The notes under the pieces are model-generated. The model ran no database searches. It was not told the origin of the DNA and saw only the letters and a list, made by a program, of their open reading frames with translations. Position numbers and translations under genes: made by a program. A stretch of 63,936 nucleotides of DNA, filler included, from an uncultured Methanosarcinales archaeon (GTDB lineage: Archaea; Nanobdellota; Nanobdellia; Woesearchaeales; CALCXY01): NCBI GenBank assembly GCA_964385185.1. It is 3 parts of 3 records of this genome, joined end to end, with 100 filler letters (N's around TTAATTAATTAA, not from the genome) between each part and the next. Parts side by side here need not be neighbours in the genome. Positions count along the whole stretch, not along the records: positions 1 to 23,427 come from CAYLOA010000019.1; 2 more parts are not named here. One strand, 5' to 3'. Below, piece by piece: positions 1,404 to 22,800 of this stretch. Each line of letters starts with the position of its first letter. The stretch's first letter is position 1.

Positions 1404-1784
1404 ATGGCAGACGAGGACAATTCTGGTGGTAATGAAGGAAGTAGTGCACCACCTAAGAAAGAGACTCGTGGAAGGCCTACTAAATCTGAAGTTAGACAGA
1501 ATATGATTGAAATTCTGTTTTATATGAAAGAAGCTTATGGATATGATATTTATCGCCATTATAAAAAAATATTTGCTCCTGTTACACTTCGTCTTATTTA
1601 TTATCATCTTAAAAAAGGGATTGAGTTAGGAGAGTTTAAGATTTCTTCTGTTAAAAAAGAGCAAGGAAAGTTTTCCTGGGGTGGAGAAGTTGAGAAAAAG
1701 TATTATGCATTAGGTGATAATGCTAAGCCTAAGGATGAAATTAGAGTAAAAGAATTCTTTAGTAAATCTAGAGAAAGTTCTTAA
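1404..1784 (+). CDS. Winged-helix (PadR-like) DNA-binding protein
   Basis: AYGYDIY...TLRLIYYHLKKG...EKKYYAL pattern is PadR-like. N-terminal RGRP motif. TTTATTAA about 25 nt upstream. Confidence 0.65.
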   Translation: MADEDNSGGNEGSSAPPKKETRGRPTKSEVRQNMIEILFYMKEAYGYDIYRHYKKIFAPVTLRLIYYHLKKGIELGEFKISSVKKEQGKFSWGGEVEKKYYALGDNAKPKDEIRVKEFFSKSRESS

Positions 1785-4700
1785 AATGTTACTTCTATTC
1801 TGAATGTTGTTGAGATTTTTAAGATGTTATTAGCAGAGTCTGTGCATTGAACATGGTAGGTGTGGAAGCCTTCATCTAAGTCTATAAGTTGTTGTTCGAA
1901 GTGAAAGTCTGAAGCTTTAGTCATTGGGAAGAATCCTTCGTTTAGTTTTGTATTGTATCCGCAGACTATGTTTGATTTTGAAATAGGTTTTGCTAGAGTG
2001 ATTGCTAATATTGGATTTGGGGTAGATATGATTGCATCTTGTTGTGGAGCTATGATTATATTTTGTAGTCTTCTTGCTCTTGTAAGATTTATTGAATGGG
2101 AGATGGAGTTGGTGTTTCTTGTTTTATTGACTGTTCTCAGACAAGCTATATTGTATGTTTGATTGCCTTTGTTGGGTAATGTTGTGGAGCATTTATAGAG
2201 TCCGATGTCTATAGTGTTTGTTGTCTGGCAAGGTTGGAATTCGTGAGTCATTTCTTGATAGAGTTTTGTGCTATTTGAGAATCTGCATGTTAGTGGATCG
2301 TCTAGATGTAAGTCTAATTGAGTTGATGCTGAATCTGCATAGATGGTGGGATATTGGAGGAAATCTCCTGAAGCAGTTATGGTATTGAAGGATGTGTTGA
2401 GGTATCTTGATGGTGCTCTATTTTTTACTGAAAAGTTGGTGTGTTGTTCTAGCTTTATTCCATATGACTCAACTATTGGAGGGTTGTCTTTACATCTGAA
2501 GTGGTAGAGGGAGGAGTTTTGTGTGAACGGTAGTAGTGTTGTGCACCTATAGGATCCTCCATCGAATGGGTCTAATTGGTAGGGTGATGTGGGACAGGAT
2601 AATTGATGAGGCATGTTGTTGTATGTAGTATCTGTTGTACTATATTTACACTCGGATGGTTCATTGACGAATAGGTTGAATGAGACGTTTTGTGCTGAAG
2701 ATGAGATTGAAGACTCATTGTTTGGAGTGGAGCCTAAGAGTATAGGTGGGTTGGTATCTTTGTATGTTGTGTTCATAACGAAATGGATAAAGAACTCGTC
2801 TTCGTTGGTGTTTCCTGTTCTATCAGTACAAGAGATGAATATATAGTAGGATGATAGCTCCAATTCTCCCAGGATGGTTGTGGCTAATGCTTTTAGGAAT
2901 GAAATTTGTGAGACAAATGGTTGGAGGATGTTTAAAGCTGAAGAGATGATAGGGTTGATGATAGTTATAGGGTCAATTCCAGTAAATCTTTTGTAGATTG
3001 CAAAGTCATCTCTAAATCTGTCTTGATAGATTGCATATTGGTTTTCTAGGTCGAAAAGAATATCTGCAATTTGGGTTAACGAAGTTATGTTGAGACTGTC
3101 ATATACTTTTGAAGGGACTGCTAGACCTGGAGGTAATCTTAGTGAGATATTATGTTGTGTTTTGAACGTGGGATCTCCAAACCAGAATGAGGGGAAGAAT
3201 ATAAGATCTATTTTGGGGATGTAGTTTAATTGGCATCTTGATGGCTCAGAAGTGTTTATACGGAATTGGACTTTATCATAGGGGATAATTTCTGGGGTGA
3301 TTGTAATTCCTGGGTAGGTTGTGGTGTGTATTTTCAGGGTGTCGTCCACTGCTGTGTAGGGGTCATTAAGATATTCTCTGTCTACTTCGATCGTTGGAGG
3401 GGTAATGTCATTTTGAGTAATTGGATAGCAGGACGGAATTCCTTCAAAGGTGAGTTCGTATTGACACAGTTGTCCTAAAGATTTGCAACGGTATTCAGTG
3501 CAAGGTTTTATGGGGTCATCTGTGCATGATTGGCATTTTTGTCCTCCAAGAGGAGATTGCCAGTTTTGGCAGAAAGCATAGTCTAATACCTTTATTTCTG
3601 GATCTGGGGTGAAGGGATTTATGAAATCTGTTAAGGAGAGATCTACAAGATAATCTAGATAATTTAATCCTGCACTAAACATTATGGATAACGTGGATGC
3701 TGGATGAGGAAAGTCTCCTATAATTTGTTGTTGTTTTCTGTTTGTTGTCGTTGTTAGAGTAGCTTTACCAATTTCTCTTGGGTTTTCATTCAATCCTGGG
3801 TTTTGGGATATGATCGAAGACGGTGTTAAGACAGGATCTGTTATGAAATATCCATCCGTTGTTAAGGTGTCTTGATAGTTTCTAGAATTACCACAATCTC
3901 CCATTGCATTGCAGGTGTAGAGTGTGTCAAGTACCCATGCATTGGGGCAAGAGAATCCATCACATTCTTTGAAAGCAGTTGCGACATTACATACTTCATT
4001 TCCATTTCCTTCCCAGTGTTTAAAGCCTGGTGGAACTAAAGGAACACATTGTAGATCTGTTGCAAAGGTGTCATCCCATGAGCAATCTCGTATTTCTGTA
4101 TCTGAACAGCAGGATTCTGTTGTGCATTTAAAACAATCTTCCCATCTGTTATTTTTACAGGTAGCTTGAAGTTGGTTGTTTGATGTTGATTCTGTGCAGA
4201 ATTCCTCTCGATAATCTCTGCACGGTTCGATGACTTCTTTTCCGTTTAGACAAGAGTGTTTGTACGATCTTGATCCTACGTATGCTAATCCTCCAATCCC
4301 TGTTTGAGTGGTTAGGACGGAGTCATAAGAACACCAAGACTCACCATGGTTTCTTTTTGGTCCTGAATTGTCCTCTGTTGTAAATCGATATGTGGTATCA
4401 CAGTTGTTTGGAGTAGGTAAAGTAGTTGGGATGGATTTTGGTGCTGGGCAGGAGCATGCCTGGTTTTCTTTTAATCTGAAGTTATTATTGGTGCATTTAT
4501 TTTGGTCACCATTTTTGAAACAGGTGTTGTCAGAAGGTGAGATGCAACATCCAAAGGCGTAGTCTGTTGGAGGGAGGGAACCAATTTGAGAAACAGTTTC
4601 AGTTCCCTTTAATGCGAAGTTGAATGTTAAGTTTCTTTTGTTGGGGAGAGTTTTTGTGAGTGAGTAGGTAGTGTCTGGATATGGACGTTGTTTTTCTATA

Positions 4701-5371
4701 TTTATTGAGAGGTTGTTATTATACATCCATTCATCTTTGTTGAAAAATTCATTTTCTATTTCCTCATTTATTATTGAGATAGCCATGGAGTATAATTGGC
4801 CAAGAGGGATAGGGAGTATTTTTGCGTATGAGTCTACTTGGATTCTGTTATCTGTTTTCTCTAGTGTTAGTGGATATGATAGTTGGAATGCGATAGCTTC
4901 TGGCAGGATGTCTATGTCGAGTTTGAAGTTTCCAGGAGTTACATTGTAGCCTTCATTTTGGAATGCTTTTATGTCAATACAAGATTCAATTTCTTCAGAT
5001 GTTGCTTGGATTAATTCATATTCCATCTCTTCTCTTAGGAGTAATGTGTGAGCACAAGATTTGAATCCTGGAATGGGAACGCAAAGATAATGGTATAATT
5101 GTTGTTGATAGAGTTTGTAGTTTTCCCTGGTGTTGTTAATTGAACCTCCCAAAGATGCTAGATGAAGTATCGGTTCTATGGCTTCTCTTTCTATGCAAGA
5201 TTCCACGTATTGTTTTAGTGTTGCTTGGTCTAGAGATGAGGGGATGGCTGAAGCTTTTGCAATATTTGAGTTTGATTCTACGATGTTTTGGTTTAGGAAG
5301 ATGAATATTCCAAAGGATAGTGAGATGACTAAGGCTATGATCATAAATGAAGTTATTTGTGCCTTCTTCAT
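1781..5371 (-). CDS. Large Cys-rich surface protein with class III (prepilin-like) signal peptide and Ig-like C-terminal repeats
   Basis: N-terminus MKKAQ|ITSFMIIALVI (K-K-A/G-Q + hydrophobic stretch). Cys-rich middle and repeated T/N-EPSxCxY...FxCxD beta modules. 1196 aa. Confidence 0.75.
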   Translation of the reverse strand: MKKAQITSFMIIALVISLSFGIFIFLNQNIVESNSNIAKASAIPSSLDQATLKQYVESCIEREAIEPILHLASLGGSINNTRENYKLYQQQLYHYLCVPIPGFKSCAHTLLLREEMEYELIQATSEEIESCIDIKAFQNEGYNVTPGNFKLDIDILPEAIAFQLSYPLTLEKTDNRIQVDSYAKILPIPLGQLYSMAISIINEEIENEFFNKDEWMYNNNLSINIEKQRPYPDTTYSLTKTLPNKRNLTFNFALKGTETVSQIGSLPPTDYAFGCCISPSDNTCFKNGDQNKCTNNNFRLKENQACSCPAPKSIPTTLPTPNNCDTTYRFTTEDNSGPKRNHGESWCSYDSVLTTQTGIGGLAYVGSRSYKHSCLNGKEVIEPCRDYREEFCTESTSNNQLQATCKNNRWEDCFKCTTESCCSDTEIRDCSWDDTFATDLQCVPLVPPGFKHWEGNGNEVCNVATAFKECDGFSCPNAWVLDTLYTCNAMGDCGNSRNYQDTLTTDGYFITDPVLTPSSIISQNPGLNENPREIGKATLTTTTNRKQQQIIGDFPHPASTLSIMFSAGLNYLDYLVDLSLTDFINPFTPDPEIKVLDYAFCQNWQSPLGGQKCQSCTDDPIKPCTEYRCKSLGQLCQYELTFEGIPSCYPITQNDITPPTIEVDREYLNDPYTAVDDTLKIHTTTYPGITITPEIIPYDKVQFRINTSEPSRCQLNYIPKIDLIFFPSFWFGDPTFKTQHNISLRLPPGLAVPSKVYDSLNITSLTQIADILFDLENQYAIYQDRFRDDFAIYKRFTGIDPITIINPIISSALNILQPFVSQISFLKALATTILGELELSSYYIFISCTDRTGNTNEDEFFIHFVMNTTYKDTNPPILLGSTPNNESSISSSAQNVSFNLFVNEPSECKYSTTDTTYNNMPHQLSCPTSPYQLDPFDGGSYRCTTLLPFTQNSSLYHFRCKDNPPIVESYGIKLEQHTNFSVKNRAPSRYLNTSFNTITASGDFLQYPTIYADSASTQLDLHLDDPLTCRFSNSTKLYQEMTHEFQPCQTTNTIDIGLYKCSTTLPNKGNQTYNIACLRTVNKTRNTNSISHSINLTRARRLQNIIIAPQQDAIISTPNPILAITLAKPISKSNIVCGYNTKLNEGFFPMTKASDFHFEQQLIDLDEGFHTYHVQCTDSANNILKISTTFRIEVTF

Positions 5372-5505
5372 TTTTTAATCTCCCAACTTTTTCCATTAAA
5401 GATGAATTCAATCTTTTGTTTGTGCTTTAGTTGCATTGCTTCAGCTATGGCTTTAGGAATAGTAACCTTGACTTGTCCGTTTTTTGAGAAGAATACTTTT
5501 ACCAT
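5368..5505 (-). CDS. Small AbrB/MazE/SpoVT-like DNA-binding protein (45 aa)
   Basis: Hand translation MVKVFFSKNGQVKVTIPKAIAEAMQLKHKQKIEFIFNGKSWEIKK*. The GQxxxTIPKxI swapped-hairpin signature is present. Its TGA overlaps the ATG of 1781..5371. Confidence 0.8.
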   Translation of the reverse strand: MVKVFFSKNGQVKVTIPKAIAEAMQLKHKQKIEFIFNGKSWEIKK

Positions 5506-5523
5506 TTTTTGGAGTTTAACTTG

Positions 5524-5568
5524 TATAGGCCTATAATTAGGTTGCTTTATAGGCCTATGCTATTTAAA
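5524..5568 (-). promoter_or_regulatory. TATA box with two palindromic operator-like sites
   Basis: TTTAAATA (5561-5568, minus strand) followed by ATAGGCCTATA (5548-5558) and perfect TATAGGCCTATA (5524-5535). Confidence 0.65.
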
Positions 5569-5619
5569 TGTTTTGGTGTTGGCATAATGTTTAAATAGTT
5601 GAGGAATGGTATGGAGAGT

Positions 5620-5997
5620 ATGAAAAGTCTTTTAGTTATTGTTTTGTTGGCATGTTTGCTTGTTGTAAGTGGATGTGCAAGTTGTGGACAGCAGCAAGAG
5701 AATTGTAAATGTGATTGCCAAGGCGGAACTTGTTCTTTCAGTTGTGATGGAAGTGATGCAGGTGGATGTGGTGGCGGTCAAGGATGTAGTTGTGAAGATG
5801 CCGCTAAGAAAGGGGCAGATACTGAAGACGCTAAAAAGAGATGTGAAAGTAGGACAGCAGGTAGTCCAGAAGCTGATCCAATTCCTGCAAGTGGCTCAAG
5901 TGTCGATGAAGTAGAACCTGAGGAGCGAGAAGAAGAAGTTGTGGAAGAACCTAGTCCAGCTGGTATTACTACAGAGGGTGCTACCCAAGTAATTTAG
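5620..5997 (+). CDS. Small Cys/Gly-rich putative lipoprotein with acidic tail
   Basis: MKSLLVIVLLACLLVVSG|C lipobox-like signal, dense CxC/CxxC cluster, E-rich tail. Start moved from 5599 to ATG 5620, which lies downstream of a TTTAAATA box. Confidence 0.7.
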   Translation: MKSLLVIVLLACLLVVSGCASCGQQQENCKCDCQGGTCSFSCDGSDAGGCGGGQGCSCEDAAKKGADTEDAKKRCESRTAGSPEADPIPASGSSVDEVEPEEREEEVVEEPSPAGITTEGATQVI

Positions 5998-10586: not shown

Positions 10587-10712
10587 TTATATATAATTAG
10601 TACTAAAAATGGGCTAATAGGGTATAAATTAGGGTTGAATAAGGTTGAATAAGGTTGAATAAGGTTAATTAAGTATAAATTAAGGCTTAGAAATTAATAA
10701 ATTAGTACTAAT
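10587..10712 (+). promoter_or_regulatory. TATA box with two TTAGTACTAA palindromes flanking a 10-nt tandem repeat
   Basis: TTATATATA 10587-10595, TTAGTACTAA at 10597-10606 and 10702-10711, (GGTTGAATAA)x3 at 10633-10662. Confidence 0.6.
10633..10672 (+). repeat. Short tandem repeat (GGTTGAATAA)3 plus one degenerate unit
   Basis: Read directly from the sequence. Confidence 0.85.
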
Positions 10713-10738: not shown

Positions 10739-10888
10739 ATGGTTAAGGTTGTTGTGAATAACGGACAGTACAAAATAACGATTCCTAAAGAGATAGCTCT
10801 CGCCAAAGGGTGGAGCAAAAATACTCGAGTTTTAGTTTCTCTGGATGCAGAAGGTCAAGTCGTGTTGAGGGAGCTCTCTAAGAAATGA
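10739..10888 (+). CDS. Small AbrB/MazE/SpoVT-like DNA-binding protein (49 aa)
   Basis: Hand translation MVKVVVNNGQYKITIPKEIALAKGWSKNTRVLVSLDAEGQVVLRELSKK*. Its TGA overlaps the ATG of the giant gene. Paralog of 5368..5505. Confidence 0.85.
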   Translation: MVKVVVNNGQYKITIPKEIALAKGWSKNTRVLVSLDAEGQVVLRELSKK

Positions 10889-13800
10889 AATATAGAAATA
10901 TGATAGTGGTGTTGGCCATTTTGCTAGTTCTTAGTTTTGGCGTTTATGGAATTAGCTTGCCAAGCACTCCTGATTGTTTTACTGATAATGATTGTTCTGT
11001 TTTTAACAAAGGAGGGGTTGATTGTAGGGGTGGAGATTGTGTCTGTACTAGTAATTCCTGTGTTAAATCTGTCTGTCAAAATAATGTTAAAGAAGGTTTA
11101 GAAGATTGTGATGATGGAAATAGTAACAATGATGATGCTTGTAGTAGTACTTGTACTTTAACTTTTTGTGGAGATGGAGATACTCAACAACCTAATGGTA
11201 ATGATCTTTCTGAACAATGTGATGATGGTGTAGGAAATTCCAATAGTTGTGTTCCTGGACGGGATGGTGAGTGTACTGTTTGTACTGACCAATGTCTTTC
11301 TCAAACGTTTATTGGAAGTTTTTGTGGAGATTCTCAAGTTGATTCTGCATTTGGTGAGACCTGTGATGATGGGAATACAGTGAACGATGATGGTTGTACT
11401 AATGGATGTTTACTTCCTGCTTGCGGAGATGGTATTCAACAAAATGGTGAGGCTTGTGATGATGGAAATAGTGTGAATACCGATAGTTGTACTAATGCTT
11501 GTACATTGGCTGTATGTGGAGATAGTTTTACTCAAACAGGTGAAGAGTGTGATGATGGTAACGACAATAATAATGATGGTTGTACTAATTCTTGTACCGT
11601 ATTGAGTTGTGGAGATGGATTTATCCAAGGTAGTGAGCAATGTGATGATGGGGTGAATAATGCTGATAGTTGTGTTGCTAGCAGGGATGGCAGTTGTGAT
11701 GTGTGTACTACAGCTTGTGTAGAAAAAACTGTTGTGGGTAGTAGTTGTGGAGATGGCAATGTAGATTCTCATTTTGAACAATGTGATGATGGTAATACTA
11801 ATAGTAATGATGGGTGTAGTAGTACTTGTCGTGATGAATCTTGTGGGGATGGTATACAACAAAGCAATGAAGCATGCGATCTAGGTAGTAATAATGCCAA
11901 CACAGGAACTTGTACTGATGCATGTTCTCTTGCTACTTGTGGGGATGGATTTACTCAAAGTGGAGAGACTTGTGATGATGGTAATAGTGATGAAGATGAT
12001 GGATGTAGTAGTAGTTGTCAAATAGAATTCTGTGGAGATGAAATTCGGCAAGCAAATGAAGCCTGTGATGCTGGCCCTAATGGGAATTTATTATGTACCA
12101 GTTCATGTACACTTACCTTTTGTGGAGATGGAGTAACACAGATTGAAAATGGTGAAGAGGTTGATGAGGCTTGTGATGATGGAAATTCAGTGGAAAGCGA
12201 TGGATGTAATAATATCTGTCAACTTACTATCTGTGGAGATGATATCGTTCAACAACCAAATGGAAACTTACTAGCAGAAGTATGTGATGACGGTACTGAT
12301 AATGCAAATAATTGTGTTGCAACTAGGGATGGTACTTGTTCCTTTTGTGATGTAAATACCTGTCAACCTGCTGATGTTACCGGTGCCTTTTGTGGTGACG
12401 GTAACTTTGATATTGGAGATGAGCAATGCTCAGATTCTAATGCTGCAGGATTCTGTGTAGAGGATTGTAATCAAAATATTAAACCTGAAATCACTTTTAT
12501 TAGTCCAAGTGCTGGAGACAATATGCCTCTTGGGCAAGAAATCGAGGTAGAAGTACGAGTTGTTGATAGAGATGTTAAAGCTGCCAATACATTACAAAGG
12601 ATAGATTTTACGGTTAAACTTGGAAATTCAGTTGTTAGTGAAGAGAGGATTACGAGTATTGGTGAAAACCAATTTTTTACTCACACTTTTACCCCTGTTG
12701 AAACAGGATCGTATTCTATTCAAGTTAAAGCTATAGATAGTGATGTTACGGTTGGCAGTATTGGAGCGGTGACTGAAGTCGATGCTACTATTCAGCTCAA
12801 AACTGTGAAAGAGTTAGGAATTGGAGATAATGATATTGCCACCTATACTTTAAACGATGAATCAATCCAAATTACTGATCCTCCTGAAAAACCTTCACTT
12901 ACTAGTCGATTTGTTCTTTGGTTACGAGGGCTTGTAGGATTTGCAGTTCGAACCAGTGTCATTGCCGATGCTGATCAAAGTAAGGTGGTTAATAATGGAG
13001 CTGATTTCAAAGCTTTCTTATCCTATACTATAGTAAATAGCGCATCCCAAGCTGTTAAAAGAGTAGGACCTACTGAGATTGAGGTGGGGAGAGTAGAAAA
13101 ATTAGATGTTCTCTTCGATGATCTTGCAGGACAAGATGGAAGTAACTTATTTGGATGGGATCCGTTTGATCGAGATATAAGTGTGCAAAGTGTTGAAGAT
13201 ATCTTTGGACTGTATCAACTAAAAGTTCATCTAGAAGATTCTGATGGTGTTGTGATTCGAAATACAGATGGAAGGTCGTTAGCGGTTGTGAGTGATTTTA
13301 GGATTGCAGAATTATGTGGAGATGGAAGAGCAACTGGTGATGAAGTTTGTGATGAAAGTGAATTTGCAGGTAAAGTCTGCTCAGATTTCTTAAATTCTGG
13401 AGGTAAACCATTTACAGGTGGTAGTCTTACTTGTTCTGATAGTTGTGATTTGTCAACGACAGTTGCTTGTGTAACTGAACCTGGATGTGAAAATGGATTA
13501 CGAGACAGTGATATTTCACTTCAAGAGACTGATGTTGATTGTGGAGGTCCTATTGTTAATGGGTGTAGTAGATGTGCTATAACTCAAGCATGTGGTGTAG
13601 ATACTGATTGTGGTAGTGGATTAATTTGTCAAACCAATGTGTGTGTAAAAGATCCTGTTTGTGGAGATTCAGTATTAGATGAGGGAGAGGCTTGTGATGA
13701 TGGAAATACTGTGAATAATGATGTGTGTAGCAGTACTTGTACCAATACTTTTTGTAGTGACTCAGTTCAACAAAGTCCTAATGGTGCGGGACAATTTGAA

Positions 13801-16800
13801 TCTTGTGATGATGGAAATGTAGCTAATAATGATGGATGTAACAGCGTATGTCAAAATGAACAATGTGGAGATGGAGTTCAACAAAATGGAGAATCTTGTG
13901 ATGATGGAAATACTAATAATGGTGATGGATGTAGTGCCTCATGTAATGTAGAGGTGTGTGGAGATGGAGTTGTGCAAACTCCTAATGCTGCTGGATTTAC
14001 TGAATTGTGTGATGATGGAGTCAGTGGAAGTGATACTTGTAACTCACAATGTACCTTCACTTTCTGTGGAGATGGAGTTCGGCAATCTGGTGAGGCTTGT
14101 GATGATGGAAATGGTAATAATAATGATGGATGTAGTGCTACTTGTAGTGAAGAAAGATGTGGAGATGGGATTGTTCAAACAATTGAGGGCTGTGATCTTG
14201 GATTAGGTAATTCTAATACAGGAAGTTGTACATTAAGTTGTAGTTTGGCTGAATGTGGGGATGGATTTAGACAGGTTGGGGAGGCTTGTGATGATGGAGA
14301 TGCCAATTCCAATACAGGAAGTTGTACTTTAAGTTGTAATGTTGCTGGTTGTGGAGATGGATTTTTACAATCAGGTGAGGCTTGTGATGATGGAAATAAT
14401 TTGAATACTGATAGTTGTACAAATGCTTGTGTAGCTGCAGTTTGTGGAGACAGTTTTGTACAATCTGGTGAGGAATGTGACTTTGGAGTTAGTAATTCAA
14501 ATACTGGAATTTGTACTACTTCTTGTTTGTTGCCTACCTGCGGGGATGGATTTAGACAAGCAAGTGAGCAATGTGATGAGGGAGAACAAAATTCTAATAC
14601 AGGAAGTTGTACTTTAACGTGTAGGACTGATCTGTGTGGAGATGGGTTTGTTCAGTCTGGAGAGTTCTGTGATGATGGTAATACCAATAGTGGAGATGGA
14701 TGTAGTAATAGTTGTTTGTTAGAAGTGTGTGGAGATGGGATTGTGCAAACTCCTAATAGAGATGGTCAAAATGAAGCTTGTGATGATGGAAATACTGTTG
14801 ATACTGATAGTTGTACTAATGCTTGTGAAGCTTCCTTCTGTGGAGATGGGACTCAACAATCTGGAGAGGCTTGTGATGACGGTAATGAAATTAATAATGA
14901 TGGATGTAGTGATCTTTGTGTAGTTGAATTCTGTGGAGATGGGATTCAACAGGCTAGTGAGGCTTGTGATGATGGAAACTTAGTCAATAATGATGCATGT
15001 AGCAGTAGTTGTGAGATTGAAGTGTGTGGAGATCAGATTATACAGACAGGTGAGCAGTGTGATGATGGTAATTTCTTAGAGAATGATGCTTGTACTAATT
15101 CTTGTAGGGTAACTACCTGTGGAGATGGTAGGGTGCAAGTTCCTAATGGTGAAGGGGTTTCTGAGAGTTGTGATGATGGAAATAGTGTGAATAATGATGA
15201 GTGCAGTAATTCTTGTAGAGTTACCTTCTGTGGAGATGGTATAATTCAATCTGGAGGGAATGGTTTGGGTGTAGATGAAGGTTGTGATGATGGGGCAGAT
15301 AACGCAAATAGTTGTGTTGCAACTAGGGATGGTACTTGTTCCTTTTGTGATGTAAATACCTGTCAACCTGCTGATGTTACCGGTGCCTTTTGTGGTGACG
15401 GTAACTTTGATATTGGAGATGAGCAATGCTCAGATTCTAATGCTGCAGGATTCTGCTTGGCTGATTGTGATCAAAACATTTTACCTGATATTTCTATTTT
15501 AGAACCTGAAAATGGAGATATTATTCCACTTGGAAAAACTGTTAATATTATAGCTACCGTTACTGATCAAGATATCAACCCAGAGAGAGATTTGGAAGAT
15601 GTAGAAATTATTGTTGAATTGAGAGGTAGGGAGATTACTAAAACTAAATCTAATTCAGTGGGCTCAGTGAGTTCATTTAGTTTTCCCTTCTTACCAGAGC
15701 AAACAGGAGATTATGTTATTAAAGTCATAGCTACTGATTCTGTGGATACAGAGAAAAGTATTGTTGTTCGTTCTGAGATTGATGCGAGTATTCAGATGAA
15801 GACTCTTAAAGATATTAATCTCCCTCCAGGAGAGATTGCAACGTATACGTTACTTGATAAATCTGTACAGTTGACTGATCCTCCCGACCCTGAACCACTT
15901 GTGAAACGAGTAGTAGGATGGTTGAGAGGTTTAGTAGGGTTTGCTGTTCGAGCAAGTGTTGTGGCAGAAGAAGATCAAAGTAAAATTGTCAATAGGGGAG
16001 CTCCGTTTGAGGCTTTTATACGATATCAAATTATTCAAAATTCATTGGCAATAAAGACTATAGGGCCTGTGCCTCTTGCTGTGGATAGTTTAGTTAAGTT
16101 AGATATTACCTTTGATGAATTGTCTGGACAATCCAATGTATTCGGATGGATTCCTACAGATAGGGTTGATACTAATGTAGTTACAGAGGATTTATTTGGA
16201 AGTTATCAATTTAGGGCTCAACTTTTAGATTCCAGCGGAACTGTATTGCATAATAAAGATGAAAATTCATTGACTGTTCTTAGTCCCTTTGTTATTGCAC
16301 CTACCTGTGGAGATACTATTAGGACTGGAGATGAAGTGTGTGATACTACTGACTTTGGAAGTGTACAGTGTAGTGATTTCTTGAATACAGCAGGAAATGC
16401 ATTTACTGGTGGGAGCCTTAGTTGTGGAAATAGTTGTGAAGCAATAGATAAAAGTCAATGTGTAACTGCTGCTGCTTGTGAAAATGGATTATTAGATGCA
16501 GGAAATCCTTTATTTGAAACTGATACTGACTGTGGTGGTCCTGTTGCAAATGGTTGTAGTAGATGTGCAATTACTGATAGTTGCTTAGTTAACTCTGATT
16601 GTGGAACTGGATTGTTATGTGAATCAAATGTATGTGTAAAAGAAGCTGTGTGTGGTGATGGAGTTTTAGATGAAGGGGAAGTGTGTGATGGATCTTCCTC
16701 TGGTGCTCAACCTCTTTGTACTGATCATGCCTTTGGTTCAGGGACCTTCGATTCTGGAGTTGTGGGTTGTGCTGCCGATTGTGGAAGTTATATTTTAACT

Positions 16801-19800
16801 GAATGTAATGTGTGTGGAAATAATGAGTTAGAAGATGGTGAACAGTGTGATGGTAGTGTCCCAAGTGGAACTACTTGTAATCTTGTTGATCCTGATAATA
16901 CTATAGGAAAGGGAACTTTAAGTTGTAGTTCAAGTTGTACCTTGGATGAGGGTGCCTGTTTACAATGTCAAGATGATCCTGCATGTGGATCTGTTGATGA
17001 TATTGTTTGTGATGGTGGACGAAATTTCCAGACATGTGAGCTTGTTAATGGATGTTTACAATTATCTACTACTTCATCTTGTTCGAATGTAATTGATGGT
17101 GGAGATTCCGAAGTTATTTGTCAGCAAAATGAGTGTAGGGTAGAACCTGATGTTATTATTACCTTAGTGAGTCCTACAGTAAGTGCAGTTCCAAGTGCTG
17201 ATGTGAATTTGGTTGTGAGTACGAACAAAGCTGCAAGTTGTACTATTAATATTGGAAATGGGGGGGTGGGTATGTCCAGTGAAGATCAGATTACTCATAC
17301 GAGAAGTGTTACTTTACCTCAGAATGGAGATAACGACCTCATCTTCACGTGTACTGATGACCTTACTGGAAAAACGGTTCCTATTACAGAAACTATTGCT
17401 CTACGAGTTGAAGAACCTGGGATTGGTGCAATTACATTTTTACCGCAAGGTGCAACTACTGTTCAAAATCTTGTAGAGATAGGTACTGGAAATTTACGAT
17501 TTTCCACAGATGAGCTTAGTACTTGTAGATTTGATTTTGGAGTGAATGACTTTTCAAGAATGCAGGAAACTGTTGGTGATGGAAATGGTCGAAATGTACA
17601 TCAAACTGATGTAGTTATTGATGAACTGCGTACTGACCAGATTTTGTTGTTTGTGGGATGTATCACTGAGGTAGGTGTTGTTGAAACCAAACCTCTTACC
17701 ATTGATGTAACATTGAATGCTGAATTTACAGCAAGTGTGGTAAGTCCTCTTGGAGAGGTTGATTTAGGAAGTGTTATTGTAGAAGTTGAAACCAATAAAA
17801 GAGCATTTTGTAAATTACAGGTGGAGGAGGGATTACAATCAGGATTATTACAATCTAATGATCGACATACTCATTCAAGGGCATTTTTAGATTTGGAAGA
17901 AGGAACGTATGTATTTGAACTTCTTTGTCAGAGTGATGATAATGAATTACTTACACAGAGTATTCCGTTTGAGTTCTTCCCTAATGGAAAACCTCCAAGC
18001 TGTAATGATGGTTCTCAGAATGGTGATGAATCTGATGTTGACTGTGGGGGAAGTTGTGGAGGATGTGGAATATCTATTCAATGTGGTGTGAGTTCTGATT
18101 GTAGTTCCAACTTTTGTTCATCTGGTGTATGTGCAGAGGCTTCTTGTACTGATGAAATACAAAACGGACAAGAGACTGCTGTTGATTGTGGTGGAAGTTG
18201 CATTTGTACAACAGGACAAGCTTGCCAAGATAATAATCAATGTGATAGCAGTTCTTGTACAGCCCAAGGTGTTTGTGGAGCAGCTACTTGTATAGATGGA
18301 ATCAAGAACCAAGATGAATCTAGTGTAGATTGTGGAGGATCATGCAAAGGATGTGGAACTGAGGTGTTCTGTAATATAGATAGTGATTGTAGAGATGGAA
18401 TTTGTGGAAGTATTAATTCACCTAATGATCATTTATGTGCTGCTCCAAGTTGTTTCGATTCTGTACAGAATGGATTAGAGACAGGACTTAACTGTGGTAG
18501 AGATTGTGCTGCTTGTAATGTAGGTAATGGATGTTTACTTAATTCAGATTGTGTTGAAGGTGTTTGTGATTCTGGCTCAGGATTATGTGCAGCTGCTAGT
18601 TGTAATGATAGAGTTCTTAATGGTGGAGAGAGTGGGGTAGACTGCGGCGGAAGTTGTAGTGCTACTTGTGATGTGGGCATAGGTTGTTTTAGTGTTACTG
18701 ATTGTAGTTCAGGAATTTGTTCATCTGGTGTGTGTACGGCGCCTACGTGTGAAGATGGACTGCAAAATCAAGGAGAAAGTGATGTAGACTGTGGTGGAAG
18801 TTGTGGAGTTTGTGGAGCTGGAGATACCTGTACGGAGGGTAGTGATTGTAGTTCTAATAAATGTAAGGGGGGATTTTGTACTATTCCGTCTTGTAGTGAT
18901 TCCGTTCTCAACCAGGATGAAACTGGTATTGATTGTGGAGGAGATGTTTGTGGAACATGTCAGATTGGAGACAGCTGTAGTGTAGGAGATGATTGTTTTA
19001 CTGATATTTGTGTAAGTGAAGTGTGTGTTGCTCAAACTTGTGAAGATGGAATAACTAATCAAGATGAGAATGATGTGGATTGTGGTGGAGTCTGTGGAGC
19101 ATGCTCTGAAGGAAATAGTTGTGATATTAGTTCTGATTGTACAAGCAATGTGTGTAAACCTAATGTGGATGGAGATTTTGTATGTCAAGCTCCTAGTTGT
19201 GATGATACTGTGAAAAATGGCAATGAAGCTGATGTAGATTGTGGTGGAAGTTGTGATGAAGCTTGTGTTGCTGGTAATACTTGTAGTATAATATCTGATT
19301 GTAGTGTAGATACCACTTGTACTAATGGTGTTTGTGTTGCTTGTCGACATGCATGTGATATTGATAGTGAGACAGTGTGTACAGATGACTTTAAACAACA
19401 GATTTGTGATGATGTAGATGGAGATCATTGTAGAGATCCTAGTTTTCCTCTTTCCTGTTCAGCTGGAGAATTTTGTGTGAATGATGGATGTGAATTATTG
19501 CTTGATAATAAGCTGACATTGGTTGAGCCAAGTTTTGGAATTGCCAATACAGGAACATTTAGAGTTGTTGTAGAGACTGATAGAGATGCAACTTGTAGGC
19601 AAAGTACTTCAGATGTTGTGTTTGATCAGATGGGTGCATTTAATGTTAATAATGGTGATAGGCATGTCTTGAATCAGCTTGGATTTATTGGGAATCAGGG
19701 AAGTCTTTTTGTAACTTGTGTTGATGTTGTTACCCAGGAGAGCTTTTCTGCTGAGTATGCACTTTCTGTGGATAAACAGCCACCGAAGATTATTGTGAGT

Positions 19801-22800
19801 GCTAGTCCTAATCCTATTGTAGAATCTCCAGCCTTGAGTCTGATTAGAGTTGAAGGGAGTACTGAGGTTCATTGTAGAATAAGTGGAAGTAGTACGGTCT
19901 TTGATGAGATGGAAGACTTAGGTAAGGGTGAGTTTAGTGATTCTCATACCTATAAAACTCCTCATTTACCTGATGGTGGAAGTACCTTCAATGTCGTGTG
20001 TAGAAATAGAGCTGGAGGCGAAGTTTCAGGGTCTGTAACCTTAGATGTTGATTTAGGAGCTAGCTTTGTTGTTAAAGATCGAACTGATGATTTGTTTGTG
20101 GAAAACTCTGGTGTTTTACGGGTTGGTACCAATAAAGCAGCTAGTTGTAGTGTTGAGCGGCCAAGTGGTACTGTTGTTATGGAACCTGATGCTGGAAATT
20201 TAGTGCATGCTCTTACTTTGGTAGGATTGGTAGATGGACTGCAATCTCAATTAGTTACGTGTGAGTCTTTTGAATCTCAGGATGTGGTGAGTTTGGATAT
20301 TTCCTTTGATGTTGCAATCGGTGGGGTCAAGGAAAGTTGTATAGATGGTATTTTGAATCAAGATGAATCAAGTGTAGATTGTGGTGGTGAAGTATGTGGA
20401 GCTTGTTCAGAAGGAGATCGTTGTAAAGTGGTAAGTGATTGTGATATTGATAGTACTTGTGGTAGCGGGGTGTGTGTTGCTTGTCAACATGAGTGTGTGG
20501 ATACTGGTGTAACTGTATGTAATGGATTAGATATTCAAACCTGTCAAGATGCAGATAAAGATCATTGTAGAGAGCTTAGTGAAGCTGTGAGTTGTGCTGT
20601 TGGGCAAGTGTGTCAAGATGATGTATGTAGTGCGCCTACTGTTTTGAAGGGTAAGATTAGCACTCCGGCCTTTGGAGAGGTTGATAAACATGTCTTTAGA
20701 CTTGAAGTGGAAACGAGTAGGGTAGCTACCTGTGTCTGGGATACTTTTGATAGGTCTTTCGATGATATGAAAGAATTTACTGGAGGAGATGGTAGTTTGC
20801 ATACTGTTGAAGGTGTGAATATTCCTGGTAGGGTTGGAGGGGTGTTCGTACGATGTGTGGATCCTCTTGCTGATGGAGTGAGTCTTCCTCAGGAGATTTC
20901 CTTTAATCAAAAAATAATTGTTGATCCGAATCCTCCTATCATTGAGTTTTCGATTGCAGATCCGAATCCGATTACTGATATTCCTGAAAAAACAAGTTTG
21001 ATTGTACATACTGACAAACCTTCGGTATGTGATTTTGTTGAGGGACAGGTAGGTACTAATGGTTTAGAAGGGGATTTCCCTGGAAAAGAGGATGGAGTCT
21101 TTATTACTGAACATGAAGTTATTTTAGATAAATTTGATCTTAGTCAGAAGGAATATGAGTTCAGAGTTACTTGTGAAAGTAAGGCAGGTGTAAGTGTTGC
21201 TGCTAAAATACCTGTAACACTTGCATCAGATGAATTATTTAAGATAACTGATACAGAATTGGCTCCGATTAGTGATATTGATCAGAATGCCTTAGAGATT
21301 GTCACCAATAAATTGGCAAGCTGTGAGTTAGATTTAGATGGTAGTAAGATTAGGCTTAAACAAGAAGATAGATTACACTATACACACCTGTTTAATGAGT
21401 TAACTGAGAGAGAATATCCTTTTACCGTTACTTGTCTTACTAATAGTTTCCAGGAAGATACTCGAGACTTGACATTTAGGGCGATAGAGGGTGGAGAGAA
21501 TTGTCATGATGGATTCCAGAATCAATTGGGAACTGAATTAGCAGAGACTGATGTTGATTGTGGAGGAGATAATACATGTGATCGATGTGAAGCTGGTAAG
21601 AAATGTGTTATTGGCGTTGACTGTGTGTCTCAGGTTTGTGGTGTAGATGGATTATGCCAAGTAGCTAGTTGTAGTGATGGAGTTCAAAATCAAGATGAAG
21701 AGAAAATTGACTGCGGAGGAGATATTTGTGCACGATGTCCTAATATTCCACCAGTTGTGCTTGGGTTGCATGCGGATAAAGAAGGTGTAGAGATTGGAGA
21801 TAGTGTTAAGTTTATTTGTGAGGCTTCCGATGAAGAGTCAAGCAACAATAAACTCATTGGAGAATTTTATTTGCGACAAACTGAGAGTCCAAATTGGAAT
21901 TTAAAAGAAAAAGAAAAGATGTTTTACTCAGATGAAGATGATAACTTTGTATTCAATTATCAAGTAGATGATTTACCTATTGGTCAAGAATTTGTAGGCC
22001 ACTGTGTTATTAGTGATGATGAAGATAGTCAAGGTTTAACGAATGCAGACTTAGGTGTTACTGTAATAAATAGCTTACCTGTTGTGAATCTTCTAACCTT
22101 TGAACCTTTAGATTTAATTCAGAAAAAAGTACGGTTTATTTGCAGAAGTAGTGATAAAAATGAAGATGAATCTAGTCTTGACGTTCGGATGACTGTTAGT
22201 AAAGATGGGAGAGAACTCTTTAGAGGGGCAGCTGCCGTTGATACTCTTAGTGGAGGTCACTTTGTTGATCTGAGTGGGGTGGAAGAAGGTGTTCATGATA
22301 TTACTTGTGAAGTGTTTGATCAAGGAAATGATGTTATTGTTTTACAAGAGAGTAGTGTAGCAGGTGGAATAAGAAAAGTGAATGTTGATTATAATGCCTT
22401 TAAAGACGATATTGATCCTGTATTTGGAGAGATTAGGATTGTTCCTTTCAAAGATAGAACAACTGTCTTCTGGGCTGCAAATGAGCTCGTCAATGGAACT
22501 TTGTTAGTTAAGAAATTAAAAGATGGTAGCCAGGTGGGAATACCAGAAACAACCTTTAAGATAACTCATGAAACGTTAGCTACTGGTTTGGAACCGTCTA
22601 CTGATTATTCGGTTGCTATTATTGCTAGTGATCCTTCAGGAAATATTGCACCTTCCAAAACACTGAGCTTTACCACCACAGGAGCATCCAGTTGTAATGT
22701 TGATACTGATTGTGATCTTACTCAGATGTGTATTGCAAATAGCTGTAGAAAGATTCCTGTTTGTGGAGATAATGTCGCAGACTTTGAAAGTTTCTATGCT

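Follow-up and report, generated by a model that had tools for sequence, protein, structure and literature searches.

Minimal AbrB-fold proteins of Woesearchaeota and their predicted phased operator arrays at the promoters of surface-protein operons

Proteins of the AbrB/SpoVT group and of the MazE/VapB/PrlF group are autoregulated via operators located at their own promoters. A promoter-bound form of MraZ is recorded in PDB entry 9sz7, entitled 'MraZ in complex with 4 box promoter'. Among the archaeal proteins, C68 of pSSVx is, according to a review, a 68-aa stand-alone AbrB-like protein that binds its own promoter region at two sites, of which one lies over the BRE (PMC5569661). The chromatin protein Sso7c4 is described as compacting DNA, and as bending and bridging it through R11 and R22 (PMC5222340). 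DPANN archaea are uncultured and, consequently, their gene regulation is almost unexplored; searches of the full-text literature (subscription journals being outside its coverage) for AbrB together with Woesearchaeota, or for DPANN together with AbrB and 'transcription factor', found no paper.

The archaeon analyzed here is a tiny marine Woesearchaeote (DPANN), with a genome of 1,297,047 bases. Two cassettes, each composed of a mini-AbrB gene and a large downstream gene, were distinguished in the window (the whole stretch of DNA analyzed; 63,936 nucleotides, filler included). The genes are ORFs, with weak AbrB-family matches for the mini genes, and the TATA-like box was read from the sequence:

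1781..5371, minus strand: 1196-aa Cys-rich surface protein with a prepilin-like N-terminus (start overlapping the mini stop, ATGA)
5368..5505, minus strand: mini-AbrB gene of subfamily SF2, 45 aa
5524..5535, minus strand: predicted operator unit 3, TATAGGCCTATA (core 5526-5533)
5536..5547, minus strand: middle 12-nt unit, AAGCAACCTAAT, placed by the 12-nt register, with one half-site (CCTA) still in register
5548..5559, minus strand: predicted operator unit 1, CATAGGCCTATA (core TAGGCCTA, 5550-5557), holding one of the genome's two ATAGGCCTAT copies
5561..5568, minus strand: TATA-like box TTTAAATA of the distal promoter
10595..10606, plus strand: predicted SF1 operator AATTAGTACTAA, adjoining TTATATATA (10587-10595)
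10701..10712, plus strand: predicted SF1 operator ATTAGTACTAAT, 27 nt 5' of the ATG and preceded by TTAATAAAT
10739..10888, plus strand: mini-AbrB gene of subfamily SF1, 49 aa (first cassette)
10885..23403, plus strand: 4172-aa Cys-rich repeat protein (ATGA overlap with the SF1 mini gene)

The 45-aa ORF translates exactly as quoted in the original prediction, and its TGA stop lies within the ATGA overlap, sharing bases with the ATG of the 1196-aa ORF. Comparison with the orthologue of G001 (same genus) gave a dN/dS of 0.10 (dS 0.88), which identifies the ORF as a real gene. The genome encodes four mini paralogues, each heading a different operon. The two mini proteins of the window have residues M1, K3, N9, Q11, T15, P17 and K18 in common, as had been noticed earlier.

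Mini proteins are 45–55-aa members of the SpoVT/AbrB fold, present in 159 of 401 genomes of this archaeon's order. The 45-aa protein matches PF04014 (E 9.2e-4; 19.6 bits, under the curated cut-off of 24.7) and TIGR01439 of NCBIfam (E 0.0033; 17.1 bits, under the cut-off of 28.3), and the 49-aa protein reaches 19.6 and 23.3 bits, respectively, both under the curated cut-offs; apart from the 0.0033, the E-values lie between 9e-4 and 4e-5, and rival families score no better. A profile of the family matches SpoVT (2ro5; E 0.0016), Sso7c4 (E 0.015-0.018), C68 (3o27; E 0.037) and C56 (7xi6; E 0.36). Among the best 120 of 853 family members, many carry a precomputed PF04014 assignment and some the NCBI name 'AbrB/MazE/SpoVT family DNA-binding domain-containing protein'. 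Structural comparison employed a natural fused-double homologue of SF2 type, P0133 (76% identical to the 45-aa protein; model pLDDT 89.6), which aligns with MraZ 1n0e (Z 8.7; rmsd 1.8 Å over 80/96) and with C56 7xi6 (Z 3.1), and whose halves superpose on Sso7c4 5itj (rmsd 1.1 Å over 42 residues), SpoVT, MazE, VapB and C56; Foldseek on its own yielded no match at E <= 0.001. The swapped-hairpin beta-barrel fold is seen in the model of P0133 rather than of the 45-aa protein itself, and together with the sequence matches it bears out the earlier description of the two proteins as AbrB-fold paralogues. Fused doubles, with two AbrB-like domains per chain, occur elsewhere in the family, and their natural existence argues that two domains work together. 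The 45-aa protein ends about 5 residues past the last strand and has no obvious signal-sensing part. Unlike type II antitoxins (MazE/VapB/PrlF), it has no toxin gene next to it and no C-terminal tail for toxin binding; unlike MraZ, with two AbrB-like domains per chain, it has a single domain.

The original prediction placed one palindrome twice upstream of the 45-aa gene. Two copies are present, but the exact 12-mer TATAGGCCTATA occurs only once, the TATA-proximal copy on the coding strand being CATAGGCCTATA (11/12 match), which begins 1 nt after the TTTAAATA box, as claimed. The match of both cassettes to WWTAG-NN-CTAWW was likewise reproduced, with ATTAGTACTAAT representing cassette 1. The whole genome has exactly two copies of the 10-mer ATAGGCCTAT, both in the promoter of the 45-aa gene and 24 bp apart; TTAGTACTAA also occurs exactly twice (at 10597, adjoining TTATATATA, and at 10702), both times upstream of cassette 1. 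The remaining genomic 8-mers TAGGCCTA and TAGTACTA are unpaired and lie mostly within ORFs, and neither is found in the cassette promoter of the other type. Loose TAG-NN-CTA sites (303 genome-wide, 46 with WW flanks) are not above chance, forming 14 adjacent pairs within 150 nt vs 10.4 expected; among these pairs, only those of the two cassette promoters have the same self-complementary centre in both sites. The left part of unit 3, AATTATAG, located 25 nt before the ATG, could, judging from spacing only, also serve a leaderless mRNA as its proximal TATA box.

Motif type follows mini subfamily throughout the order, although the compared genomes are related rather than independent and the statistical significance of the following counts is overstated. 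The 8-mer TAGTACTA was found upstream in 38 of 55 SF1 promoters vs 5/85 promoters of other subfamilies, with at least two copies in 33 of the 55; about 10 of the 17 SF1 promoters without the exact 8-mer have the variants TATTACTAA or CAGTACTG. Corresponding enrichments were obtained for TTAGTACT (43/55 SF1 promoters vs 4/85 others), TGTATAAT (20/44 SF3 promoters vs 0/96 others) and GTATATAT (15/20 SF5 promoters vs 7/120 others). For SF2, paired TAGGCCTA is present in 3 of 6 lineages (G000 and two further, diverged ones, L171 and L173), which keep the motif twice despite saturated synonymous sites between them. The 45-aa protein belongs to a large, undescribed family, every branch of which has a site of its own.

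The SF1 sites often adjoin the TATA box or the start codon. In 23/38 SF1 promoters a site core begins -2 to +6 nt past a TATA-like octamer, and in 19/38 a site ends at most 8 nt ahead of the start codon or overlaps it; a TTTAAATA-type TATA unit immediately precedes the site array, in the 12-nt register, in G000, G001, L171 and L173. The sites form phased arrays, a feature overlooked in the original prediction, with a period of about 11 bp in SF1 and 12 bp in SF2. In SF1, the 35 distances between sites group around 11, 22, 33, 44, 55, 66 and 77 (circular R 0.83-0.86 at periods of 10.5-11 vs 0.30-0.32 at 9.5 and 13), and stepping from the first site by 11 gives a match to the consensus of 4.8/10, vs 3.1-3.4 for periods of 7-10 and 12-15. 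The SF2 distances (24, 12+24, 48 and 96) are multiples of 12 bp; since 12 bp is no helical repeat, 'same face' binding does not explain the SF2 arrays.

We consider it likely that the mini protein is a dedicated autoregulator, probably a repressor, acting on a phased operator array in its own promoter, alongside paralogues that regulate locally as well. The 45-aa protein would be a stand-alone swapped-hairpin DNA-binding protein of the SpoVT/AbrB fold; as its predicted homodimer is two-fold symmetric, it should read palindromes. Its most probable target is the short phased row in its own promoter, in which a half-site unit separates two strong TAGGCCTA palindromes that lie 24 bp apart; the row starts 1 nt past the TATA box and stops some 20 nt short of the start codon, and dimers may form oligomers on it. 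The bound protein should hinder assembly of TBP, TFB and RNA polymerase, or initiation, which would result in auto-repression of the bicistronic, translationally coupled operon encoding the mini protein and the 1196-aa surface protein. The SF1 paralogue of the same genome would do likewise with TAGTACTA at the 4172-aa gene.

Two other explanations give the mini protein a different role. The palindromes might be promoter elements (extended TATA/BRE) or be bound by another factor, with the mini protein acting as a non-specific DNA-binding or chromatin protein of the Sso7c4 kind; Sso7c4 is indeed reported to bind and compact DNA (PMC5222340), and the flanks of several sites resemble TATA boxes themselves (TTATAG, GGTATAA). 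This is improbable, given the order-wide correspondence between motif and subfamily, the confinement of both 10-mers to their own promoters, and the presence of four paralogues, one per operon, for which a chromatin protein would have no need. Moreover, none of 42 control loci with a homologue of the large protein but without a mini gene has either TAGTACTA or TAGGCCTA, showing that the motif goes with the mini gene and not with the downstream gene. Even less probable, to the point of being very unlikely, is an antitoxin-like or chaperone-like partnership with the downstream protein, with incidental palindromes. PF04014 is named MazE_antitoxin, JGI calls many of the members listed PrlF/MazE antitoxin, and a 4-nt gene overlap is typical of TA pairs, but no toxin-family gene lies downstream, 45 aa leave no room for a toxin-binding tail, and the sites are conserved and phased. 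The partners are, moreover, diverse (secreted or membrane proteins of 173-4172 aa, a YjeF-like kinase, ABC ATPases), SF2 orthologues lead unrelated downstream genes, and mini genes are not consistently paired with the 1196-aa family, an AbrB gene being located upstream in only 3/67 loci with a homologue of that protein.

A further proposal concerns specificity within the autoregulator reading. The original prediction held that paralogues and operator centres (GC vs TA) had co-evolved, giving a simple code, in its strict form that operators are told apart solely by the centre of TAG-NN-CTA, with residues of the first beta strand deciding. The co-evolution part stands, each subfamily having its own order-wide upstream motif, and operators and paralogues have diverged together; the simple code is only partly supported, and we regard its strict form as doubtful. 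In its favor, the TAG-NN-CTA centres upstream of 141 minis are almost only TA (81) or GC (8), with AC (2), AT (1) and CG (1) making up the others; the SF2 proteins of G000, L171 and L173 have pairs of GC sites and SF1 proteins pairs of TA sites; and the family beta1-beta2 loop aligns, in a weak HMM alignment, with the base-contacting R11 of Sso7c4. Against it, the first strand of L178 is of SF2 type (MVKVFLSKNGQVRVTIPKA...), yet its sites are two TTAGTACTAA, and the SF2 promoter of L171 includes a TA site. In G001 and L172 the strand is equal except for G10K and no GC centre is present: G001 has lost both perfect palindromes and has TAACCCTA, TAGACCTA and TAGGGTTA (the second within ATTAGACCTATT, the counterpart of middle unit AAGCAACCTAAT), while L172 has AATAGGGCTTATG only. 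Conversely, L053 and L166, whose tandem minis are of SF1 type only, also have a TAGGCCTA-type site in the promoter, accompanied in L166 by a CG site. TAG-NN-CTA is used by SF1 and SF2 but not at all by SF3, SF5 and SF6, whose promoters have other scaffolds, and the period is also subfamily-dependent (11 vs 12 bp).

The 1196-aa protein has 121 homologues in Woesearchaeota/Nanoarchaeota, none of them named. Many of its cysteines are invariant over 32 homologues (consensus N-terminus KKxQITxFIIxG), in agreement with its earlier description as Cys-rich. An archaeal class III signal peptide begins with basic residues and G/A/S, which are followed by Q and a hydrophobic helix. The N-terminus MKKAQITSFMIIALVISL (MKKAQITSF followed by a hydrophobic stretch) fits this prepilin-like motif; the AF2 model (pLDDT 84.7) has a helix at residues 3-40 and a beta-rich C-terminal half, and two genes of the genome, at C81 and C27, match Peptidase_A24 with scores over the cut-off. 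The label 'prepilin-type' is thus backed by motif, helix and peptidase genes but not by a curated model, Pfam and NCBIfam models of prepilin-like N-termini giving no match at E <= 0.1. In Foldseek, the model matches tandem Ig/cadherin-like adhesion ectodomains, with a low whole-protein TM.

More tentatively, it is possible that minimal 45-55-aa AbrB-fold regulators of Woesearchaeota polymerise on phased palindrome rows between TATA box and start codon, with both the site (TAGTACTA, TAGGCCTA, TATACATA or another) and the unit length (11 or 12 bp) specific to each paralogue, and together constitute orthogonal, cooperative, self-repressing switches that choose which giant surface/adhesion protein is displayed. 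If so, a DPANN archaeon would select at the level of transcription how it contacts its host; L171, L053 and L166 would be cases of occasional cross-wiring between switches. The family is proposed to act on the largest surface proteins of these episymbionts, which presumably face the host. Regulator family, operators, promoter position and phasing are legible from sequence alone over about 140 promoters, and the predictions are concrete and, with peptides of 45 aa and sites of 12 bp, testable in vitro. Natural paralogues that differ in site and array period while sharing a 45-residue scaffold would, in addition, be a compact model for swapped-hairpin DNA reading.

The closest analogues of the mini regulator are C68, Sso7c4 and MraZ. 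The AbrB/SpoVT N-domains and the MazE/VapB/PrlF antitoxins (PF04014, TIGR01439) belong to the same fold family by sequence, but have C-terminal parts for oligomerisation, sensing or toxin binding, whereas the mini protein has neither such a part nor a toxin gene. C68 (3o27) and C56 of pSSVi (7xi6) are, like the mini protein, stand-alone archaeal swapped-hairpin proteins without a C-terminal domain. C68 has two sites near its own promoter, one at the BRE/TATA, as predicted for the mini protein; it differs in the non-palindromic motif TATG(C/GG)TTTTC and in being encoded on a crenarchaeal mobile element, and the review passages on it describe no paralogue set, phased arrays or link to surface-protein operons (PMC5569661). 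Sso7c4 of Saccharolobus solfataricus (2l66, 5itj, 5itm), a homodimeric archaeal AbrB-fold protein about 53 aa long, gave the closest structural match among single-domain proteins (rmsd 1.1 Å over 42 residues, with the P0133 halves); in place of its R11 and R22, the mini family has G/K/N and A/L (in a weak alignment), plus conserved specific sites. MraZ (1n0e, 9qlg, 9sz7), the best fold match of P0133 (Z 8.7), shares the AbrB-type barrel and binds a row of repeated promoter boxes, but is a bacterial single-chain double domain encoded at the dcw cluster, whereas the mini protein is an archaeal single domain with palindromic boxes of 11- or 12-bp period.

The genome around window positions 1-23427 (contig C19) comprises 1.30 Mb in 85 contigs, with a GC content of 35%. 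Homologues of the C19 proteins carry the names Woesearchaeota, Nanoarchaeota or Nanobdellota, which identifies the organism as a DPANN archaeon. The stretch was present in marine, seawater and hydrothermal-vent metagenome DNA runs; none of the 24 runs listed was an RNA run. Two cassettes were distinguished, each composed of a small SpoVT/AbrB-fold gene (mini-AbrB, or mini; subfamilies SF1-SF6) and a large overlapping gene:

1781-5371, minus strand: gene of the 1196-aa protein; its start overlaps the mini stop codon as ATGA
5368-5505, minus strand: SF2 mini gene (45 aa)
5524-5535, minus strand: putative operator unit 3, TATAGGCCTATA, followed by 18 nt and the mini ATG
5536-5547, minus strand: middle unit, AAGCAACCTAAT (coding-strand reading), between units 1 and 3
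5548-5559, minus strand: putative operator unit 1, CATAGGCCTATA (coding-strand reading)
5561-5568, minus strand: TATA-like TTTAAATA, one base before unit 1
10598-10605 (core), plus strand: putative SF1 site 1, TTAGTACTAA, abutting TTATATATA
10703-10710 (core), plus strand: putative SF1 site 2, TTAGTACTAA, 27 nt before the cassette 1 ATG
10739-10888, plus strand: cassette 1 SF1 mini gene (49 aa), with an ATGA overlap with the 4172-aa gene

The 45-aa protein of the original prediction is the product of the ORF 5368-5505(-), and the ATGA overlap was confirmed in the sequence. The palindrome said to occur twice upstream does have two copies, but the exact 12-mer is found once, the other copy matching at 11 of 12 positions. 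The 10-mer ATAGGCCTAT has two copies genome-wide, both upstream of the SF2 mini, and TTAGTACTAA exactly two, both at cassette 1. The loose TAG-NN-CTA pattern is not rare (303 genomic sites; 14 adjacent pairs within 150 nt vs. 10.4 expected), and pairs (≤150 nt) with the same self-complementary centre occur, genome-wide, only in the SF2 and cassette 1 promoters. The mini together with its upstream sites is a real, non-random feature. The 105-bp operator spacing of cassette 1 is accounted for by a 10-bp tandem repeat located between the two operators (GGTTGAATAA; 10616-10685, 6.7 copies at 80%, including 3.4 perfect copies at 10633-10666). On the plus strand, a divergent gene (5590-5997) specifies a Cys-rich protein of 125 aa whose start resembles that of a lipoprotein (MKSLLVIVLLACLLVVSGC). 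This gene has its own TTTAAATA at 5590-5597, 31 bp away from operator unit 1 and ~23 nt upstream of the ATG (5620), a spacing suggestive of a leaderless mRNA.

Both window minis matched only AbrB-type models of Pfam and NCBIfam, all under the curated cut-offs (PF04014, 19.6 bits; TIGR01439, 17.1 and 23.3 bits). A 23-sequence family profile retrieved from the PDB SpoVT (E 0.0016), Sso7c4 (E 0.015-0.018) and C68 of pSSVx (E 0.037). The predicted fold (pLDDT 89.6) of P0133, a fused-double homologue 76% identical to the SF2 mini, superimposes on MraZ (Z 8.7, rmsd 1.8 Å over 80/96), and each of its halves fits Sso7c4 (rmsd 1.1 Å over 42), SpoVT, MazE, VapB and C56; a Foldseek search with this double-domain model gave no match at E ≤ 0.001. 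Comparison of the SF2 mini with its orthologue in G001, a MAG of the same genus, points to purifying selection (dN/dS 0.10 at dS 0.88). The mini is predicted to be a stand-alone AbrB-fold autoregulator, a known kind of protein. The family numbers 853 proteins at E ≤ 0.001; among the best 120 of these, some carry the NCBI label [quoted passage not shown] and many the JGI label PrlF or MazE antitoxin. Two minis are also found fused in a single chain of 96-109 aa (P0129, P0131, P0133, P0135, P0137, P0138, P0141, P0160; loci L048, L091, L115), several being of SF2 type with non-identical halves, for which asymmetric operators should be expected; the length range of the SF2-type doubles is 96-103 aa. 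A genome scan with fused-double SF2 proteins as queries yielded three loci, none of them fused.

The window's own genome (G000) encodes four close paralogues, one each of SF1, SF2, SF3 and SF4. The SF3 gene (contig C1, 35179-35325) overlaps a YjeF-like kinase gene, and the SF4 gene (contig C54) has an ATGA overlap with the gene of a 333-aa membrane protein. Upstream of SF4 lies a unique perfect palindrome, GGGTACGTACCC (C54 2524-2535, L002), replaced by TTCAGAAtTTTCTGAA in the G001 orthologue (L038). SF3 minis commonly precede, and often overlap, a YjeF-like carbohydrate kinase/NAD(P)HX dehydratase gene of 252-330 aa (e.g., G000 C1 35179-36082, L001), and SF5 minis sit before an ABC-transporter ATPase gene (227-238 aa). 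The family is present in 27 of 41 related genomes (E ≤ 0.01) and in 159 of 401 genomes of the order (E ≤ 1e-9), seven genomes of the latter tally being flagged as unpublished. From 114 fetched regions and the earlier loci, 160 non-redundant minis were compiled (152 single-domain, 8 fused doubles); the promoter set comprises the 140 single-domain minis that are first genes and are preceded by 120 nt or more of sequence.

Unsupervised 8-mer enrichment across these 140 promoters revealed subfamily-specific motifs: TTAGTACT (43/55 vs. 4/85 others) and TAGTACTA (38/55 vs. 5/85) for SF1, TGTATAAT for SF3 (20/44 vs. 0/96), GTATATAT for SF5 (15/20 vs. 7/120) and AATAGTAT for SF6 (4/5 vs. 8/135). The enrichment p-values are overstated, since the genomes are related; the spacers between sites cannot be aligned, however, which points to the sites as the target of selection. 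At least two TAGTACTA copies were found in 33/55 SF1 promoters. About 10 of the 17 promoters without an exact copy have TATTACTAA or CAGTACTG variants, and the remaining ones are GC-rich or apparently operon-internal. Minis with the helix variant AES[HR]GW (H/R for K; SF1 promoters L256, L260, L234, L248 and L154) have sites with C/G flanks (CAGTACTG, AGTACTGA) and not TAGTACTA; this hints at a link between the helix residue and the site flanks, although L275 (K, C/G-flank sites) breaks the pattern. Among 42 loci with a class-III start and no mini, TAGTACTA or TAGGCCTA occurred within 150 nt in none and any TAG-NN-CTA in one, and the motif appears to track the mini gene rather than the downstream cargo.

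Of the 38 SF1 promoters with the TAGTACTA 8-mer, 23 have a site core that begins between -2 and +6 nt relative to the end of a TATA-like octamer, 19 have a site that overlaps the start codon or ends at most 8 nt before it, and 13 show both arrangements. The 35 adjacent SF1 distances were 11, 22 (x2), 32, 33 (x7), 43, 44 (x5), 53 (x2), 55 (x8), 64, 65, 66, 77 (x2), 94, 98 and 105, and their circular R was 0.84-0.86 at periods of 10.5-10.8, 0.83 at 11, 0.62 at 12 and 0.30-0.32 at 9.5 and 13. Between strong SF1 sites, the match to TTAGTACTAA was 5.29/10 at multiples of 11 vs. 3.36/10 out of phase, and a scan of periods 7-15 gave a single peak at 11 (4.8 vs. 3.1-3.4). A motif-free 4-mer self-similarity test placed the peak lags at 11 and 22 bp for SF1, at 12 and 24 bp for SF2, SF3 and SF6, and at 12 bp for SF5. 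Site distances were 12 (x5), 30, 36, 48 (x6) and 60 (x6) in SF3, and 24, 12+24, 48 and 96 in SF2. The two apparent operators therefore mark the strong ends of an array whose unit is 11 or 12 bp. In the bacterial ara and lac systems, looping in vivo is known to follow a period of about 11 bp; a period of 12 bp does not correspond to a helical repeat. The SF1 beta1-beta2 loop, shorter by one residue, was considered as the determinant of the 11-bp vs. 12-bp period and rejected, as seven SF3 members with a short loop still showed lags of 12 and 24 bp. In SF3 short-loop promoters (L046, L232, L239, L240, L241), the units are upstream of a TTTATAAA box located ~25 nt before the ATG, which places the array on the BRE side and not the TSS side.

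Half-sites are kept in the 12-nt register at 4 of 6 positions in G001 and 5 of 6 in G000, which explains the apparent palindrome loss in G001 with no need of an RNA hairpin. Such a hairpin was considered for the inverted repeat of the two genomes (12-nt arms, 10-nt spacer), where GG>AC is compensated by CC>GT. It was judged unlikely, because the left arm begins a single nucleotide downstream of the TATA box and would be outside a transcript from that box; a hairpin may exist in a transcript starting further upstream, and the 12-nt register is preferred as the simpler account.

The original prediction also held that operator centres (GC vs. TA) had co-evolved with the paralogues as a simple specificity code. 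G001 carries the sole close SF2 orthologue (84% identity) among the genome contigs searched, and a metagenome scan added three SF2 lineages. L171 (identical to L177; 80% identity) has a TATA box, AATAGGCCTAAT, TTTAGTACTAAA and TTTTAGGCCTATG, the last overlapping the ATG; L173 (76%) has TTTATATA, then TTAGGCCTAA and, further on, TATAGGCCTAAATG; L172 (84%), 6 nt past an upstream ORF, has the sole site AATAGGGCTTATG. The GC-centred TAGGCCTA pair, with one copy by the TATA box and the other on or close to the ATG, thus recurs in three lineages (G000, L171, L173), between which synonymous sites are saturated. The G001 units (CATAACCCTATA, ATTAGACCTATT, TATAGGGTTATT) lack the GC centre, and L178 has an SF2-type N-terminus, yet two TTAGTACTAA sites 96 bp apart. 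The upstream motifs differ by subfamily. G001 and L178 speak against a simple centre code. Mixed site types suggest cross-regulation of paralogues: in L171, ~7-43 nt before the ATG, an SF1-type TAGTACTA is flanked by two TAGGCCTA, and in L053 and L166 (tandem SF1-type minis) TAGGCCTA lies between TAGTACTA sites, L166 also carrying TAGCGCTA.

The 1196-aa family has 121 homologues, and an AbrB gene was found upstream at only 3 of the 67 homologue loci that have at least 350 nt of sequence before the homologue: G001 (single domain), L091 and L115 (fused doubles). The mini as an obligate partner of this family was therefore rejected. SF2 orthologues precede unrelated genes, encoding a BNR-like secreted protein (L173) or a coiled-coil and transmembrane protein (L171, L172), and SF1 minis mostly precede large signal/anchor-bearing proteins of 173+ (contig end) to 4172 aa, most of them >450 aa. 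The 1196-aa protein matched no Pfam or NCBIfam family model, and a protein atlas search returned only its own unnamed Woesearchaeota clusters. Its AF2 model (pLDDT 84.7) comprises a helix (3-40), an alpha/beta and Cys-rich middle and a beta-sandwich-rich C-terminal third; Foldseek indicated tandem Ig/cadherin-type adhesion ectodomains, with a low whole-protein TM. Its KKAQ-plus-hydrophobic start, a kind of start seen in four other ORFs, and the two Peptidase_A24 genes of the genome make it reasonable to infer an adhesin-like protein that is processed and displayed at the surface. The homologue is split into two adjacent genes in about ten Woesearchaeota genomes (L111, L116, L117, L120, L121, L123, L125-L128), the first encoding 255-280 aa with a class-III-like start and the second 1100-1350 aa, Cys-rich, with its own Sec-type signal (starts ...CCE.T..G..C.Y).

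Most likely, mini-AbrB dimers would occupy the row of sites starting at the TATA box, which would block promoter assembly or initiation and so auto-repress the translationally coupled operon; here the binder, its oligomeric form and the direction of regulation are all inferred. Less probably, the sites are bound by another factor, or the mini is a non-specific protein like Sso7c4, which is described as a chromatin protein (PMC5222340); the subfamily-specific motifs that accompany the mini genes speak against this. A role as antitoxin or chaperone would agree with the PrlF and MazE labels but is unlikely, the sites being conserved and phased. Autoregulation by the mini is the reading we prefer.

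Two features appear to be undescribed: palindromes specific to each subfamily, and the phasing of the arrays. Both are conserved across Woesearchaeota and linked to the genes of giant surface proteins. The closest described case to mini autoregulation is C68 of pSSVx; the closest for rows of boxes is MraZ, according to its PDB title, and the closest solved single domain is Sso7c4.
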